From IMG/VR virus record IMGVR_UViG_2703718798_000004: a stretch of DNA of 16,647 bases; one strand, 5' to 3'. Below, in pieces: positions 9,750-16,647 of the stretch (within the stretch, counting starts at the first letter, position 1; each line of letters begins with the position of its first letter). A model generated the notes under the pieces. The model was given only the letters and a program-made list of their open reading frames with translations. It had not been told where the DNA came from and did not search any database. The DNA comes from a virus (lineage: Duplodnaviria; Heunggongvirae; Uroviricota; Caudoviricetes). The translations under genes and the position numbers were made by a program.

Positions 9750-10430
9750 TTATCCCTGTCGACCAATAACCACCACCTTTCCGCCCCCGCCTTCATCACG
9801 GGTGCTGATGTCCTGAGAGATACGTCGTGAACCAACCAGCATTTCACCGTAGGGCACCGGCATCGGGTTGCCCTGGGCAATCATGTTGTCCAGTGAGGAA
9901 AAGTACGTGTTCTGTCTGCCGTTATCCGTTGCGCGGTAATCCGGTGTTTTTGCCTTCGGGGCCAGCATCTGTGCCACACCACCCAGAATCATGCTGGCTC
10001 CAAGTGAAAACAGCATCGTGGTGGCAGAAAAACCACCGGCTGCCAGGGCTGAACCCCATAACGCCATTGATGCCCCGGCAGTGAAGAAAGAGCCCACGAT
10101 GGCTGCCGCCCCCAGCACAATCTGCAGTCCACCCTTTCCGGCCCCGGCCAGTCGCGGCACAATGTGGATGACCGTTCCCTCACCCAGTGGTTCGTGAAGA
10201 CGGGCGTACACCGCCTCCGGTGCCGTGTCATCACCGGCAATACGTATCTGGTACCAGCCTTCGTTCATCTGACGGCGAAAGCCCGGCATCTGCATCGACA
10301 GGGCGCGGATGGCTTCCGCTGCCGTGTTCACATACAGGCTGAGGCGGCGGCCAAATCGTTGTAAATTCCCGTGAAGGCAGATGCGTGCCAGTGGCGGTGA
10401 CGCCAGACAGAATGCGTTCGTCGTTGCCAT
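9750..10430 (-). CDS. I: Tail tip assembly protein I, 226 aa
   Basis: MATTNAFCLASPPLARICLHGNLQRFGRR...IRIAG...VIHIVPRLAGAGKGG...QIVLGAAAIVGSFFTAGAS...GASMILGGVAQMLAPKAKTP...NTYFSSLDNMIAQGNPMPVPYGEM matches lambda gpI as I recall it, including the N-terminal ubiquitin-like region and the glycine-rich hydrophobic core. Confidence 0.9.
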   Translation of the reverse strand: MATTNAFCLASPPLARICLHGNLQRFGRRLSLYVNTAAEAIRALSMQMPGFRRQMNEGWYQIRIAGDDTAPEAVYARLHEPLGEGTVIHIVPRLAGAGKGGLQIVLGAAAIVGSFFTAGASMALWGSALAAGGFSATTMLFSLGASMILGGVAQMLAPKAKTPDYRATDNGRQNTYFSSLDNMIAQGNPMPVPYGEMLVGSRRISQDISTRDEGGGGKVVVIGRQG

Positions 10431-11071
10431 TTTTCGGAATACCTCTCTCGTTTGCTCAGTTGTTCAGGAATATGGTGCAGCAGCTCGCCATCACCACAGT
10501 AAATGGCGGCATGATTCGGCACCGATGAACCAAAACAGCACAGCAGCACATCGCCCGGTTGTGCTGATGACAACGGCACCTGATACAGCCCTGTGGCCTC
10601 CAGATTATCCAGGTACAGGTTCTGGCCGTTGCGCCACCAGTCATCCTCGCGATGAAAATCCGGCATTTCAGTCCCCGCCAGATGATAAGCATCCCGGAAC
10701 AGCGTGTAACAGTCCGTCACCCCGTGCGCAAAGCGCCGTCCTGTCAGATGTGGCACACAGCGGAATTTGTGAATGTCACCCCGGCAGACCAGCCACCAGG
10801 GCAGGGCACTTTTTATCTGCAGCCGCCGGTCAGCCTCGCTCAGCCAGGGCAGCCCACCGGGATGACTGTGGACCAGTGCCACAATCTCCCCCTGCATCTC
10901 TGCCCGCAGCCAGTCTTCCGGTGCGATACGAAAATACGCCTCCGGCTCTGCGGAAATATTCACACAAGGGATATACCGCTCCCCCTCCGGCGTGCTTATC
11001 ACGAAGCCGCACGACTCCGCAGGCGCACACCGCCGGGCATGCGCCAGAATCGCTGATTCAGTCTGTGTCAT
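10328..11071 (-). CDS. K: Tail tip assembly protein K (JAB/MPN metalloprotease-like domain plus NlpC/P60-like cysteine peptidase domain), 247 aa
   Basis: The ORF-track entry (10328..11332) is open further upstream into gene L; I place the start at the ATG at 11071 (MTQTESAILAHARR...), 10 nt after the L stop. JAMM motif HSHPGGLPWLSEAD (H-x-H-x7-S-x2-D). The C-terminal part contains ...HGVTDCYTLFRDAYH..., NlpC/P60-like. The 3' end overlaps gene I by about 100 bp in another frame. Confidence 0.85.
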   Translation of the reverse strand: MTQTESAILAHARRCAPAESCGFVISTPEGERYIPCVNISAEPEAYFRIAPEDWLRAEMQGEIVALVHSHPGGLPWLSEADRRLQIKSALPWWLVCRGDIHKFRCVPHLTGRRFAHGVTDCYTLFRDAYHLAGTEMPDFHREDDWWRNGQNLYLDNLEATGLYQVPLSSAQPGDVLLCCFGSSVPNHAAIYCGDGELLHHIPEQLSKRERYSEKWQRRTHSVWRHRHWHASAFTGIYNDLAAASACM

Positions 11072-11081
11072 AAAACAGGAT

Positions 11082-11780
11082 TTACTGCGAAAGTTTATTG
11101 ATGGAAAGGAAACCGCCAAAATTGCCGACATTCCTGCGCAGTTCACACCCGCGCATGCACTTGCTGCATCTGTCCTTACGGATATCCGTGGTGGGGTTGT
11201 CGAACTCATCCGCCACCGCAGGACCGTTATACCCGCATTCATCTCCCCGGTAATCCCACATACAGGTGTTCGCCAGCATGATGCGACCGGGAAACAGCGC
11301 ACCGTCCGTCTCCGTCGGTGTCGCCAGCACAAACGAGGCCGTCATGGCTGTCAGCTCCGACATCTGCTCCACCACCCAGCGGTCACTCAGCTCCTGCTCC
11401 GGGTCCGCCTCCGGATTGCCCGCAACGAAATTCACCGCATCCAGAAAACGGGCATACACCCGGCGGCGGACCACCATGGCCCCCACCAGGCTCTGCAAAT
11501 CCTCCGCCATTCCGGTGACAAGACCAAACAGATTGGACACCGTCAGCGACGGGCGGGCACTGCTGCCCTTTCCGTTCATCTCAAAGCCACTCCCCTCAAT
11601 CGGGTACGCCTGATATTGCCGCCCCTGCCAGGTCACCGGCTCCCCTTTTTCATTCAGCTCATTACAGAAAAAATACCGCTCACCGCCCTGTACCGTCAGG
11701 TCGATTTCCCAGAGCACCACCCGCGGTGACTGCTCTGACTTAACCGACTCGTTCAGACTTTCTTCGTGAATATCCTGCAT
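11082..11780 (-). CDS. L: Tail tip protein L, 232 aa
   Basis: MQDIHEESLNESVKSEQSPRVVLWEIDLTVQGGERYFFCNE... matches lambda gpL as I recall it. A C-terminal cysteine cluster (TCMWDYRGDEC...DRCSKCMRGC) is consistent with the iron-sulphur cluster reported for gpL. The ATG overlaps the M stop. Confidence 0.9.
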   Translation of the reverse strand: MQDIHEESLNESVKSEQSPRVVLWEIDLTVQGGERYFFCNELNEKGEPVTWQGRQYQAYPIEGSGFEMNGKGSSARPSLTVSNLFGLVTGMAEDLQSLVGAMVVRRRVYARFLDAVNFVAGNPEADPEQELSDRWVVEQMSELTAMTASFVLATPTETDGALFPGRIMLANTCMWDYRGDECGYNGPAVADEFDNPTTDIRKDRCSKCMRGCELRRNVGNFGGFLSINKLSQ

Positions 11781-12121
11781 CAGTTCACCACCTGCTCAAT
11801 CGTACAACTGAAATCACTGTACCTGGCGTTATCTGTGACGCTCCACTCCCGGCACACCACCCTCACCGTCCGGTTATGTTTCGGTGGTCGCCACAAAAAG
11901 GCACGGTAACCACCATGCCACGATAAAAATTCATCCAGCCAGCGCCGGGTTGGTTCATCCGTCACCCGGAACACCGCCTGAAACGTCTTCAGTCTGGCAT
12001 TAAGTCCCGTCGGTCGGCGCTGTTCATAACCGTCACCAAACCGAACCCTCACCACCGACGGTTTCTCACTCACCTGCATCCCTTCACGCGGGACCAGATG
12101 CAGCGTTTTTATCTCAGCCAC
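11780..12121 (-). CDS. M: Minor tail protein M, 113 aa
   Basis: MAEIKTLHLVPREGMQVSEKPSVVRVRFGDGYEQRRPTGLNARLKTFQAVF... of gpM-like size and sequence. It overlaps the H stop by 8 nt and the L start by 1 nt, as in lambda-type tail operons. Confidence 0.9.
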   Translation of the reverse strand: MAEIKTLHLVPREGMQVSEKPSVVRVRFGDGYEQRRPTGLNARLKTFQAVFRVTDEPTRRWLDEFLSWHGGYRAFLWRPPKHNRTVRVVCREWSVTDNARYSDFSCTIEQVVN

Positions 12122-15100
12122 TCAGCATTCCTCCGTCACGTCGCATGGACAGCATCACCGCCTGCACCCGCTGGTCAATCAGCTGCACAAGACTGCCTGC
12201 CGCCTCCGGCCCTATCTGTCCGTTAGCCCCGTCATTCTGAATGGCGATATGGTAGACCGGGGAATACACCAGACCGGCACTGCCGTTCATACTGCCCACC
12301 GCGCGTACGCCCAGCGAGCCATCCGCCGCCCGGGTCAGGGGCATAATGGCTTCAGGTCCGGCTTCCCCCATCAGCCCGGCCCCTTTTGCAAAGGCAAAGT
12401 ACGTGGGCGTATCCACAATGCTGTTGCTGTACGCACTCAGGTTTGCCGAGGTATACACGCCGCCTTTTGCATTGGCCACCGCACCGCCCAGCCAGTCACC
12501 AATACTGCCAATAAATCCTCCTGCACCGGACATACTGTTTGCCGCCGTCTTGATCCCGTTGACAATCGCGGCATTCATAAGAACTTTTGATATTTCCTGC
12601 AGCACTGATGAGGCCCAGTTGCGCCATTCCACTTTGTTTCCGTTCAGCATCTCCGTGATGTTATTCACCAGTCCTGAAATCCCCTCCGTTGCCAGCTGTG
12701 CTGCCTGAGAGGCGTAATCGGATGCATTGTCCACCCAGTTACTGAGCCCCTCCTGCAAGCCTTTCTGCCAGTCCGCACGCTGCGCATCCGATTCGGCATA
12801 AAAGGCTGCCTGGTCCTTAAGGCGTTCGCTCAGATACTGCGCGTTCTGTGCCCGTGCCTGTCTGTAAAAATCCTCACTGATATCCCCGGTCTGATACTGA
12901 GACTGAAGGTCCGCATCCTTCTGGCGGAAGCTGTCGCGGATCTGCTGCAACTCCCGCATGCGTTCCCTGGCTCGTTCTCCCTGCCCGTACCCCAGCAGTT
13001 CAGCTTCATTTGATGCACGCGCAGCCACATTATCATTCTTCAGGGTCTCTTCCCGGGATCGCAACTGTTCCCGGATTTTTTGCTGGTCAATCAGGGCCGC
13101 GTTACGCAGCAGTTCCTGCTTCTGCATCTCCGTCAGGGTTTTCAGTTCGCCCTGCGCAGTCTGGTACTTCAGCTTCGCCAGCTCTGTATTCTGACCCGCC
13201 AGTGCCAGTTGCTCTTTCTGCTGCTTCAGTAGCCGGGAAAAACTGTCTTCCGCTTTTTCCGTCTCTGATTTTCCACCCCGGGATTTAGGTTTGTTCGCCT
13301 CGTTATTACGCCAGGCTTCCAGAGCATTACTGATATAACGCTGTCTCGCCTCCTGATACGAATCCCCCACAAAACCAAGGTCATCCGCCGCATACCCCAG
13401 CCGGGCACGCTCTTTTTCCTCCCCCTTCAGTCGGGACAGGGCCAGCTCACGTTCTGTTTTTGTCAGGGCGCTCTGCTGTTTATCATCCAGGGTGGCCTGC
13501 GGCAGCCGTAACGGTACATTCACCAGTCCCTGCCGCTGCTGAAGCAGTTCATTCCCCAGCCCCAGCAGACGGTTGAATTCCGTATGCTGACCGTTCATAA
13601 CCAGCATGGACTGGTACACCTTATTCTGCTCTGCCGCCTGCTGACGAATTAACGCCACACGACGGTCTTCCAGCCCGGCAAGCACATCCTGAATGGACTG
13701 CGCTTTTTCCTGCATCTGTGCCAGACGGGACTGCTCAACGGCAAGCTGCTCTGTTGCCTGAGAAAGCCCTTCCGTTACGGTCTTCACCGATGTCAGATGG
13801 TTTATCATGAATCCGTCACCGGTTGTCCAGCCAGGGTTAGCCAGAACATACTGATATCCAGCGATTTTTTCCTGCAGGGATTTCACCCGGCTGGCCTGTT
13901 CATCAATCAGCCGGTTCTGCTCTGCCAGCGCCGCCCGTGTTCGTCCTTCATTATCTGAGGCTTCAGGCAAAGACATTGACGGCGTTTTATGCGCGATTTC
14001 ATCTATCGTCAGTGCATACTGGCGCGCTGACTCCCTGGCCTGCTCCTGATTCTGGTACAGCGTATACCATGCTGCTGCCCCCAGCATCACCAGTCCGGGT
14101 ACGCCACCAACCAGTCCCAACGCACCAGTCATCAGACGTGAGCCCACCGCCGTTGTACTGTTCAGCGCATTCTGGGCTGCGGTTCTGGCAGCAATATTTC
14201 TGTTCAGGCGTTCCTGTGTGGCCGCCAGACGGGCTTCTGCAGCAATCTGCATCTCCGTCCCGCGGGCTGCCGCCACAGCCTGCTGTGCACGGTACACGGC
14301 TGCCCTTGCCCGCGCCGTGGCAATCTGCGTCCCCCTGAGCTGTGCTTCCGCCAGTGCCACTTCATTACGTGCTGCCGTCACAAGTCCTGCCGTGGCAGAC
14401 ACCGCTCCGGAGGCCATATTGCCAAAGTACCGGGCAACCCCGACGGCAACCAGCGCCCCCGCTGCTGTTGCCACATTATCAATATTACCGGCAACACCGT
14501 TCAGCACGCCGGAGAGCGTTTTCGTCGCTCCGCTGGCTTCATTCGCGCCACCCACCCAGGCCATAAAGGCGTTTTCCACCTTTGTGATCCCGTCAGAGAC
14601 CGTTTCCGGCATGGCGGCATATTCATCACGCAATACCCCCAGCTGGCTGATTAACGCAGGAACGACTTTATCCGCCGTCAGTTTGCCGTCGTCCGCCATC
14701 GCCTTAAGGTCTTTACGGGCCACGCCCATACCCGCAGCCAGTGCACGTATGATCCGGTCTCCGCTTTCATTGACCGAATTAAATTCCTCACCCCGTAACA
14801 CACCCTGTGCCAGCGCCTGGCTGAACTGGGTGATCACCGAGCCCGCCTCTGCCGTACTGGCACCGGAGATTTTCAGCCCCGTGGAAATGGCCTCCGTCAC
14901 CTTCAGTACATCACCGGCACTGTAGCCATATTCACGCATTGAGGCTGCCGAGCGGGCAAACAGGGCCGCATTATCTGAAAATGCCGTGCCCGTCCGCTGG
15001 CTGATATCCATCAGCACTTTCTGTGATGACGAAAATTCATCGGATGACTGCGACGCCTGTTTCAGTCGGGCATTCACGGAACTCCATTCATCGGCCAGAG

Positions 15101-15356
15101 AAATCAGGTGTCCGGTGGCAAAGGCACCTGCAAATGCCCCCGCCGTTCCGGCAGCTGAAGCGCGGATTTCCGTCAACTGGCTGTTCAGCTCAGCCAGGGC
15201 GCGTCGCTGCTCCCGGGCGACTGCGGCAGCCTGACGCCCGCCATTCTGCAGGGTCCGGTAATATTCACTGCCCATGCGGGAAGCCCGCTGGATCTCCGAC
15301 TGGAATGACTGCGAATTTGCCGAAATTTTGATAATCAGTTCACGTAACGTCGCCAT
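12114..15356 (-). CDS. H: Tail tape measure protein H, 1080 aa
   Basis: Long Ala/Gln/Arg/Glu-rich largely alpha-helical protein in the position between G-T and M. Central hydrophobic glycine-rich segment (...LMTGALGLVGGVPGLVMLGAAAWYTLY...) and a gpH-like C-terminal region. GGAGAAAGG ribosome-binding site upstream of the ATG at 15356. Confidence 0.9.
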   Translation of the reverse strand: MATLRELIIKISANSQSFQSEIQRASRMGSEYYRTLQNGGRQAAAVAREQRRALAELNSQLTEIRASAAGTAGAFAGAFATGHLISLADEWSSVNARLKQASQSSDEFSSSQKVLMDISQRTGTAFSDNAALFARSAASMREYGYSAGDVLKVTEAISTGLKISGASTAEAGSVITQFSQALAQGVLRGEEFNSVNESGDRIIRALAAGMGVARKDLKAMADDGKLTADKVVPALISQLGVLRDEYAAMPETVSDGITKVENAFMAWVGGANEASGATKTLSGVLNGVAGNIDNVATAAGALVAVGVARYFGNMASGAVSATAGLVTAARNEVALAEAQLRGTQIATARARAAVYRAQQAVAAARGTEMQIAAEARLAATQERLNRNIAARTAAQNALNSTTAVGSRLMTGALGLVGGVPGLVMLGAAAWYTLYQNQEQARESARQYALTIDEIAHKTPSMSLPEASDNEGRTRAALAEQNRLIDEQASRVKSLQEKIAGYQYVLANPGWTTGDGFMINHLTSVKTVTEGLSQATEQLAVEQSRLAQMQEKAQSIQDVLAGLEDRRVALIRQQAAEQNKVYQSMLVMNGQHTEFNRLLGLGNELLQQRQGLVNVPLRLPQATLDDKQQSALTKTERELALSRLKGEEKERARLGYAADDLGFVGDSYQEARQRYISNALEAWRNNEANKPKSRGGKSETEKAEDSFSRLLKQQKEQLALAGQNTELAKLKYQTAQGELKTLTEMQKQELLRNAALIDQQKIREQLRSREETLKNDNVAARASNEAELLGYGQGERARERMRELQQIRDSFRQKDADLQSQYQTGDISEDFYRQARAQNAQYLSERLKDQAAFYAESDAQRADWQKGLQEGLSNWVDNASDYASQAAQLATEGISGLVNNITEMLNGNKVEWRNWASSVLQEISKVLMNAAIVNGIKTAANSMSGAGGFIGSIGDWLGGAVANAKGGVYTSANLSAYSNSIVDTPTYFAFAKGAGLMGEAGPEAIMPLTRAADGSLGVRAVGSMNGSAGLVYSPVYHIAIQNDGANGQIGPEAAGSLVQLIDQRVQAVMLSMRRDGGMLSG

Positions 15357-15403
15357 TCACCTTTCTCCGGGCGTAAAAAAACCGCCTCAGCGGTTCTCAT
15401 CAT

Positions 15404-15718
15404 TCATGACTGTGCTGCAAAGCTCAGCGCGTCTTCCAGCGCCGCAAACGGATCCACCTCCGGCTTATCCTCATCCTCGCCCCAGCAGAGCATGGCGTCC
15501 TTCAGTGCAACATTCATCCCCTGTGCCCCAAAAACCGCTTTCACGATCTGTGCATTACGGATATCCCCGCGCTCATCACCCAGCGGGGATACCCTGTCGA
15601 ACTCCATCCACATCATCGCCTCGCTCGCACTCAGGCTGTGCCGCAGTTCGGATAAGGTGCGCCCCAGACGGAGCCCAAGTCGCATCAGAAAGCGAATTTC
15701 CGGGCGGGCTACTTTTTT
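15404..15718 (-). CDS. T: T portion of the G-T tail assembly chaperone fusion, reached by a -1 programmed ribosomal frameshift from G
   Basis: The -1 frame entered at the slippery heptamer reads KKVARPEIRFLMRLGLRLGR..., identical to the ORF-track T frame (MRLGLRLGRTLSELRH...), and continues to the stop at 15404-15406. No separate ribosome-binding site is needed. Confidence 0.8.
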   Translation of the reverse strand, partial: KKVARPEIRFLMRLGLRLGRTLSELRHSLSASEAMMWMEFDRVSPLGDERGDIRNAQIVKAVFGAQGMNVALKDAMLCWGEDEDKPEVDPFAALEDALSFAAQS

Positions 15719-16083
15719 CTGGCCGACTCTGCATCAGCGATCAGTTCCAGTGCCTGACGCAGCAACCGGGCATGTACCGGACCATAGACGGCCAGCACCT
15801 GCTCACGGTCGTCCGGAGTGAACACCCGTTGCAGGTCAGTATCACACAGGACATCGCAGAACAGCGTCACATCCGCTTCCAGGTTACGGCGGGTTTTCGC
15901 CACCACCGACAGGGTATCGTCATCCTCTCCATCACCATTGAGCACTTCCTGCCACAGATACCAGGCCTCTGCCGAAGGCTCCCGCAGCACCACGCTGACA
16001 TTTCTCCATTCCGGCACCTTCACCGTTTTATGACGGAACCCCGACAGTCTGGCCAGCGCCAGTGTTTTCAGATCTTTTGCCAT
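15709..16083 (-). CDS. G: Tail assembly chaperone G, 124 aa
   Basis: Acidic 124-aa ORF immediately downstream of the major tail protein gene and upstream of T, ending ...AESARKK with the slippery site in its last codons; position and frameshift architecture define it. Confidence 0.85.
   Translation of the reverse strand: MAKDLKTLALARLSGFRHKTVKVPEWRNVSVVLREPSAEAWYLWQEVLNGDGEDDDTLSVVAKTRRNLEADVTLFCDVLCDTDLQRVFTPDDREQVLAVYGPVHARLLRQALELIADAESARKK
15712..15718 (-). other. Programmed -1 ribosomal frameshift slippery heptamer A_AAA_AAG at the end of gene G
   Basis: Minus strand reads ...GCC AGA AAA AAG TAG... in the G frame (A R K K stop). A AAA AAG is a canonical X XXY YYZ slip site and the -1 frame continues into T. 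Confidence 0.8.
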
Positions 16084-16088
16084 AAGCC

Positions 16089-16647
16089 TTATCCGCCCGC
16101 ACCATTAACCGTTACTGTACACGCATCAGAGGTAATGCTCTGCGGCTGTTCTGCAGAATCCGTTACCACGCAGGTATATTTCCCCGCATCAGCGGACTGC
16201 GCACCTGGCTTACTGAAGGTGTCTGTCGTCTGACCGTCAACCGGCTGACCATCCTTCTTCCAGGCGTATTTATACGGCGGCGTTCCCCCGTTGGCACTGA
16301 CTGACATTGTCAGCAGCGCACCGGTATTCACGGTAAGTGTCTTATCCAGATTTTTCCCAAACGCCAGCGGTACCACAAAGGACACCGGTTTGCCTTTCAG
16401 ACGCAGTGAAAACGTTGCTGCCACCACGCCGTTGGTACCGGATGACCAGGTGTGCTGACGCACTTCCGCCAGGAACTTAAAGCCCTTACCGGACGGAAAC
16501 TGCACCTTAAACGCATACAACGCGTCATTGTCATAGGCATCACGCAGGGCGTTCTGGGCCTGATTCAGATAAAAATTACCCGACATGGAAATCTCGGACG
16601 ACGCCCCCAGACCGTTGATGTTCTCCTGCTCTGTGGAGCAGAGCGTG
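16089..16647 (-). CDS. V: Major tail protein V with C-terminal immunoglobulin-like domain; 5' end lies beyond the right edge of the window
   Basis: The frame is open from the window edge (my translation upstream of the track's Met: ...TLCSTEQENINGLGASSEISMSGNFYLNQ...). C-terminal ~80 aa (...GGTPPYKYAWKKDGQPVDGQTTDTFSKPGAQSADAGKYTCVVTD...TVTV) has the tryptophan and Y-x-C signatures of an Ig-like fold, the kind of C-terminal decoration domain carried by lambda gpV. Position is immediately upstream of G. Confidence 0.8.
   Translation of the reverse strand, partial: TLCSTEQENINGLGASSEISMSGNFYLNQAQNALRDAYDNDALYAFKVQFPSGKGFKFLAEVRQHTWSSGTNGVVAATFSLRLKGKPVSFVVPLAFGKNLDKTLTVNTGALLTMSVSANGGTPPYKYAWKKDGQPVDGQTTDTFSKPGAQSADAGKYTCVVTDSAEQPQSITSDACTVTVNGAGG

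Follow-up and report, generated by a model that had tools for sequence, protein, structure and literature searches.

A programmed -1 frameshift signal joining G and T in the HK97-type tail module of an E. coli lambdoid prophage

The 16,647-nt stretch of Caudoviricetes DNA analyzed here (IMG/VR record IMGVR_UViG_2703718798_000004, referred to below as the window) carries on its minus strand two overlapping reading frames that, judged by their sequence relationships, encode the tail assembly chaperones G and G-T within the HK97-type tail module carried by an E. coli lambdoid prophage of the Stx/EHEC type. The reading that we favor, at a probability of roughly 93%, is a programmed -1 ribosomal frameshift in which tandem tRNA-Lys slip on an A_AAA_AAG heptamer at a level of a few percent, to give a 226-residue G-T fusion whose ratio to G would control tail assembly around the tape measure. 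Frameshifting from G into T is textbook phage biology, and the feature at this locus is already known: it falls among the HK97-type members of the G/G-T chaperone frameshift family, and it has been both catalogued and measured. The coordinates of the signal, of the two products and of the flanking tail genes are collected in Table 1.

The first-pass annotation, made from the letters of the window, had claimed that the last codons of G read AGA AAA AAG TAG and that a -1 slip on A AAA AAG leads into the frame of a 93-residue T reading frame. Both claims hold. The minus strand gives the 3' end of G as GCC AGA AAA AAG TAG, with the stop codon directly abutting the heptamer, and translation in the -1 frame from 15712 yields VARPEIRFLMRLGLRLGR...AAQS, 102 residues ending at a stop at 15406..15404 (also written VARPEIRFLMRLGLRLGRTLSEL...SFAAQS, 102 codons with the end at 15404). 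According to the list of open reading frames and their translations, this is the frame of the 93-residue ATG reading frame at 15404..15685 (-), and the junction peptide after a -1 slip would read KK/VARPEIRFLM..., the slash marking the slip. Counting back from the G stop, the -1 frame stays open for 22 nt only; the heptamer lies inside this overlap, and a shift into T is confined to about 7 codons. Counting of the motif adds nothing: AAAAAAG is present in 3 copies on both strands of the window, against 2.2 expected from shuffles, a number not beyond chance, and motif enrichment therefore carries no weight. The significance of the heptamer lies instead in its phase, its position, its homology and the published experiments.

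Table 1. Positions of the frameshift signal, its predicted products and the adjacent tail genes in the window
Feature	Coordinates	Strand	Description
G, tail assembly chaperone, zero-frame product	15709..16083, including stop TAG 15709-15711	minus	124 aa, MAKDLKTL...ADAESARKK
Slippery heptamer A_AAA_AAG	15712..15718 (heptamer 15718..15712)	minus	X_XXY_YYZ phase; last two G sense codons and the preceding A
T segment, -1 frame after the slip	15404..15712	minus	102 codons, VARPEIRFLM...AAQS, and stop 15404-15406
Predicted G-T fusion	15404..16083	minus	226 aa, 124 aa of G and 102 aa of the -1 frame
ATG used by RefSeq/PGAP for a stand-alone T	15683..15685	minus	start of the 93-aa 'tail assembly protein T'
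Tape-measure protein gene	12114..15356	minus	1080 aa, immediately downstream of T
Major tail subunit gene, 3' part, running past the window end	16089..16647	minus	immediately upstream of G; matches to Ig-like C-terminal domain

The identity of the two reading frames is supported by profile matches and by gene order. G aligns with Pfam family PF06222 (Phage_TAC_1, E 2.3e-61) over residues 1-124 of the 124-position profile and is 100% identical to ECs1801 from prophage Sp9 of E. coli O157:H7 Sakai, and the T segment has a match to PF06223 (Phage_tail_T, E 6.3e-19). The pair is flanked by the major tail gene on one side and by the tape-measure gene on the other, with all of these genes on the minus strand, which is the position expected of G and G-T. 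The tape-measure protein matches the Pfam families Phage_HK97_TLTM (7.6e-90), TMP_3 (2.9e-57) and Tape_meas_lam_C (1.7e-17), and in near-identical loci the upstream neighbor of G is annotated as a 'major tail subunit' of 717 nt. The window contains a complete lambda-like tail module, which also includes M, L, K, I, J, the tail fiber and a fiber-assembly protein, and the tail genes V, G, T, H, M, L, K, I and J, together with the fiber gene, are intact full-length reading frames with strong family matches.

The signal has a direct experimental counterpart. Antonov et al. 2013 (PMC3711429, Supplementary Table S2) placed a matching cassette with short flanks in an E. coli GST-MBP reporter and obtained 7% (+/-0.79) -1 frameshifting, and the tested 75-nt cassette is identical to window positions 15664-15738 (-) at 74 of its 75 nucleotides. 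It represents the Sakai Sp9 genes ECs1801/ECs1802 (GeneTack 'Phage_TAC' cluster, Antonov 2013), which have the same heptamer, the same adjacent TAG and the same -1 T frame as the window; the single difference is GGC in the window against a GCG-context GCC/CGC in Sp9, with LGLR for LALR in T. Over the whole of T, Sp9 and the window differ by a few C-terminal substitutions, none of them at the signal itself. In the same study (PMC3711429) the cluster named 'phage tail assembly chaperone' comprised 41 HK97-related genes, of which two members were tested, with 6% and 7% frameshifting. Sharma et al. 2014 (PMC4066793, Supplementary Tables S4, S7 and S8) list the site in cluster A_AAA_AAG_25, with the entry 'ECs1801, tail assembly chaperone; [true]'; the cluster holds 53 genes, the frameshift in it yields a longer product than the zero frame does, and it is equated with GeneTack programmed-frameshift cluster #10. 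The G-T fusion proposed by the first-pass annotation is thus supported by the pairing of PF06222 with PF06223, the position among the tail genes, the in-phase heptamer and the 7% measured for the cassette.

The closest well-described relative in architecture is HK97, where gp13 and its -1 extension gp14 form a chaperone pair whose two parts fall in PF06222 and PF06223, as here. The window G is 63% identical to gp13 and the T segments are 61% identical; the genes occupy the same position and the slip falls at the same alignment column. HK97 differs from the window in that its site is G_GAA_AAG, G runs 5 more codons past that site, and a moron gene (gp15) stands between T and the tape-measure gene. 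The relationship to lambda G/G-T (Levin, Hendrix and Casjens 1993; Xu, Hendrix and Duda 2004, 2013, 2014) is more distant. The gene order V-G-T-H, the -1 shift near the end of G, the PF06223 T domain and the inferred function are all as in the window, whereas lambda G falls in another Pfam family (PF06894), lambda T, at 144 aa, is the longer of the two, and the lambda heptamer is G_GGA_AAG. A pairwise BLASTP of the window T against lambda T found no similarity, and the shared Pfam profile is the only link between the two. The first-pass annotation had noted that the heptamer of the window is that of dnaX and that lambda uses G_GGA_AAG; the lambda site was confirmed, at a distance of 15 nt from the G stop. 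The remark is correct but makes no new point, A_AAA_AAG having been catalogued earlier for G-T and for ECs1801. Lynch et al. 2012 (PMC3483164) cite Xu et al. 2004 for AAAAAAG as the site of the G-T shift in VT1-Sakai and in several further phages, and the in-phase A_AAA_AAG for a G-T shift was confirmed in the VT1-Sakai sequence. We considered whether VT1-Sakai carries the same module as the window and rejected this: its G (140 aa) is of the lambda type with the same heptamer, its T is lambda-like, and its slip site precedes the stop of G by 15 nt.

In RefSeq/PGAP, G goes under the name 'phage tail assembly chaperone' and T appears as an independent 93-residue 'phage tail assembly protein T', without a ribosomal-slippage join. 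The corresponding alternative is that T is made only as a separate 93-residue protein from the ATG at 15685 and that the heptamer is incidental; besides the stand-alone coding sequence in the PGAP annotation of near-identical loci, several GenBank records agree with this, some with a start still further downstream, and the ATG coincides with a conserved FLM motif in most relatives. However, no Shine-Dalgarno pairing above background was found before the T ATG (-3.5 kcal/mol, equaled or bettered by 62% of sequence windows), and the starts of H (the tape-measure gene), M and L gave -6.6, -9.5 and -12.1 kcal/mol. The 8-9 codons that precede the ATG are open and conserved as a -1-frame peptide in all relatives, and phage KS9 has LEL where the others have FLM, with Leu in place of Met, so that no Met stands at the T start position. 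In addition, the HK97, HK446 and KS9 homologs are recorded as joined coding sequences, that of HK97 with the note 'translated due to a -1 frameshift'. The weak Shine-Dalgarno pairing, the conserved -1 peptide, the lack of Met in KS9 and the joined records argue for the fusion and against separate initiation of T, as does the frameshifting of the matching cassette in the reporter. We therefore regard production of T solely as a separate protein as very unlikely. The ATG is most likely an internal Met codon of the fusion, within the FLM motif, and T, we infer, depends on upstream translation. The stand-alone T in RefSeq is an annotation gap, not biology.

Conservation of the site was examined among both close and diverse relatives. 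The close set (n = 83) consisted of 80 relatives from IMG/VR, where a scan of viral contigs yielded relatives at 98-100% only, and 3 from GenBank or RefSeq, and was used for invariance, not diversity; a 45-nt context around the slip site is identical in the window and in all 83. A peptide-pattern scan of genome contigs with the G protein as query gave no confirmed relative, a limit of the method for a gene that is abundant in E. coli. Diverse loci were obtained by tblastn against GenBank phages (16 fetched loci), and eleven representatives cover phages of E. coli, Vibrio, Cronobacter, Klebsiella, Burkholderia and Bordetella, together with lambda. In all of these diverse loci an in-phase A_AA[G/A] falls at one and the same alignment column, close to where G ends. 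The heptamer is A_AAA_AAG in the window, 733R4, Vibrio phage Pm34, Burkholderia phages phi644-2 and phi1026b and Bordetella phage PHB09; A_AAA_AAA in Burkholderia phage KS9; G_GGA_AAG in mEp390 and, in its own G family, in lambda; G_GAA_AAG in HK97, HK446, LAU1 and ENT39118; and A_GCA_AAG in three Klebsiella phages. From the last -1-frame stop to the zero-frame stop there are 7 nt in 733R4 and two of the Klebsiella phages, and 13 nt in the third Klebsiella phage, and the 7-nt interval pins the shift to the site that contains A_AAG. Downstream, the stretch from the slip to the annotated ATG encodes, in the -1 frame, a conserved peptide, K/[VA]..P...FLM.LALR.GRTL..EL.

Two groups among these relatives have sites of a different make. 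In the HK97 group the G_GAA_AAG at the homologous position (HK97 locus 1820-1860) is an imperfect X_XXY_YYZ, and in the three Klebsiella phages a TAA directly follows A_GCA_AAG. At the sites of both groups only the A-site tRNA-Lys can re-pair, which implies that slippage in these relatives would be of the single-tRNA A_AAG kind.

An identical fusion could also arise at the level of transcription, if RNA polymerase added one A in the run of six and the mRNA then coded for the same G-T. The mRNA would read AGA AAA AAA GTA... and encode RKKV..., so that protein data cannot distinguish the two; because a ribosomal shift and an extra A in the mRNA give the same protein, the product leaves the level of the shift unproven. 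Poly-A runs are known slip sites at which efficiency grows with run length, and for a different gene Antonov et al. 2013 (PMC3711429) reported 10% with 7 A, 40% with 9 A and 63% with 11 A. The relative 733R4 has a run of 8 A. Productive transcriptional slippage in E. coli generally needs runs of more than 6 A, however, and the run in the window has only 6. Homologs fuse at G_GGA_AAG, G_GAA_AAG and A_GCA_AAG, which hold no homopolymer and all keep the tRNA-Lys A_AAG, and A_AAA_AAG ranks with the best ribosomal slip sites of E. coli. Transcriptional slippage is accordingly, in our estimate, even less probable than an exclusively separate T, and the ribosomal shift is retained as the preferred reading.

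The heptamer is common to the window and dnaX, in which it is likewise read by the single E. coli tRNA-Lys, and the two signals differ in most other respects. The dnaX gamma/tau signal has a stimulatory Shine-Dalgarno-like element about 10 nt upstream and a stable stem-loop 5-6 nt downstream and shifts at about 50%, whereas neither element was detected here and the matching cassette shifts at about 7%; the shift in dnaX leads to a truncated product, whereas here it would extend the 124 aa of G to a fusion of 226 aa. A search for a Shine-Dalgarno-like element in the 17 nt upstream of the heptamer detected none: the best anti-Shine-Dalgarno duplex has -3.0 kcal/mol against a background mean of -4.7, 70% of windows along the sequence are as good, and AGGGAG gives -7.4. 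Folding of the 62 and 142 nt downstream gave z scores of -0.15 and +0.20 relative to dinucleotide shuffles, that is, structures not more stable than the shuffles. Sharma et al. 2014 (PMC4066793) record the Shine-Dalgarno element as N for cluster A_AAA_AAG_25 and predict a 130-nt hairpin whose margin over the local average is only 0.020 kcal/mol per nt. The site thus has the dnaX heptamer but, with the stimulators not detected, is no dnaX-type cassette.

The difference from lambda in the heptamer itself appears to have no consequence for the level of the shift. In another E. coli reporter A_AAA_AAG and G_GGA_AAG shifted at 0.29% and 0.28% with no stimulator, at 4.3% and 3.8% with the IS911 stimulator, and at 39% and 43% with the IS3 stimulator, and the swap of one heptamer for the other is functionally neutral. 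The natural cassette, at about 7%, lies well above the roughly 0.3% of the bare heptamer, a value from a different reporter, though no stimulator was detected at the locus. We speculated that the abutting zero-frame TAG acts as the stimulator (a 'shifty stop') in place of the Shine-Dalgarno element and hairpin of dnaX. If true, this would account for the gap between the natural cassette and the bare heptamer, and the ratio of G to G-T would depend on RF1 termination kinetics. A stop that abuts the slip site is also found in 733R4, in Vibrio phage Pm34 and in the Klebsiella phages with the weak A_GCA_AAG. However, there are relatives in which the stop is 3, 15 or 30 nt away, and a G_GGA_AAG_CCG_TAA cassette with the stop one codon away shifted at a similar 6% (Antonov et al. 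2013, PMC3711429). We consider a stimulatory role of the stop codon doubtful.

The sequence of T raises the question of whether the signal is still used. At residue 13 after the slip (15670-15678 (-)) the window has RLGLRLGR, against LALR in nearly all relatives; the Ala-to-Gly change occurs in only 2 of the 84 close copies and is the sole mismatch to the tested cassette. Given this rare change, the prophage copy in the window may be functionally degraded. A stronger form of this reading is that there is no functional recoding at all, the locus being a remnant of a decaying prophage in which the G/T arrangement is merely inherited. EHEC lambdoid prophages are often defective, the substitution in the conserved T motif of the window is rare, and related loci include one with T fused by a deletion and another with a truncated T. 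However, all of the tail genes in the window are intact and full length with strong family matches, and the slip-site context shows no variation among the 83 relatives; moreover, this alternative concerns the use of the signal, not its identity. Of the readings considered, absence of functional recoding is the one to which we give the least credence.

The two damaged loci form a pair of IMG/VR relatives (L077/L015). In one, a deletion has removed the tape-measure gene and joined the beginning of T, in frame, to a K-like (JAB/NlpC) sequence; in the other, T is frameshifted and truncated. Both are cases of prophage decay at the tail module.

Several other features were observed in the window. 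Between the T stop and the tape-measure start there is a GC-rich hairpin with a U-run (15377-15398 (-), the U-run extending to about 15374) of the form GAACCGC-UGAG-GCGGUUC...UUUU, which by direct folding has -10.8 kcal/mol and a z score of -2.2. A scan with a terminator consensus did not pick up this hairpin, and direct folding revealed it. The structure is kept in Sakai Sp9 with a different stem (CCUGC/GCAGG) and in 733R4 with a different loop, and on this basis it looks like a conserved terminator-like or mRNA-stabilizing element in the tail operon. Further downstream, a 334-aa reading frame with a TTG start, called mechanically at 10328-11332 (-), is K-like, with JAB and NlpC/P60 matches at residues 90-311. 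It overlaps L (11082-11780 (-)) by about 250 nt, and the K-like gene probably has its real start at an internal codon close to where L ends. The tail fiber gene (4201-5691 (-), 496 aa) contains collagen triple-helix repeats and phage fiber repeats and is followed by a DUF4376 fiber-assembly-like reading frame (3606-4181 (-)). A 413-aa reading frame at 1886-3127 (-) carries a YadA-like membrane anchor at its C-terminus (Pfam E 3e-17), and its best matches among solved structures are to the E. coli immunoglobulin-binding protein EibD (2xqh, E 5e-31; 2xzr, E 5e-27). By these matches it looks like an Eib-type trimeric autotransporter, a prophage cargo beyond the tail-fiber genes.

For the G/T locus, we infer a ribosomal (tandem tRNA-Lys) slip in this context, the efficiency in the phage and the chaperone mechanism, which together would operate as follows. 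Most ribosomes would translate G and stop at the TAG, and a few percent would slip back by one base with tRNA-Lys on the AAA and AAG of A_AAA_AAG, both tRNAs re-pairing with AAA AAA so that the next codon becomes GTA. The shifted ribosomes would then read 102 more codons and complete the fusion. If lambda is a guide (Xu, Hendrix and Duda 2013, 2014, as given in PMC5009743, where the mechanism and role of lambda G and G-T are reviewed), the G part of both proteins would coat the tape-measure protein and the T part of the rare fusion would recruit the major tail subunit. With G coating and T recruiting, the frequency of the slip would set the ratio of G to G-T needed for correct tail assembly.

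The module is widespread. At 99-99.9% identity, the region matches Stx1a-, Stx2a- and Stx2c-converting phages as well as other EHEC lambdoid prophages, and the locus was found in 1246 of 5426 complete E. coli genomes, with up to 7 copies per genome. Because T is listed as a stand-alone reading frame, the 226-residue fusion is missing from protein databases and from the search spaces of proteomics. As a discovery the frameshift carries little weight; its residual value lies in correcting the annotation of a very common E. coli prophage module.
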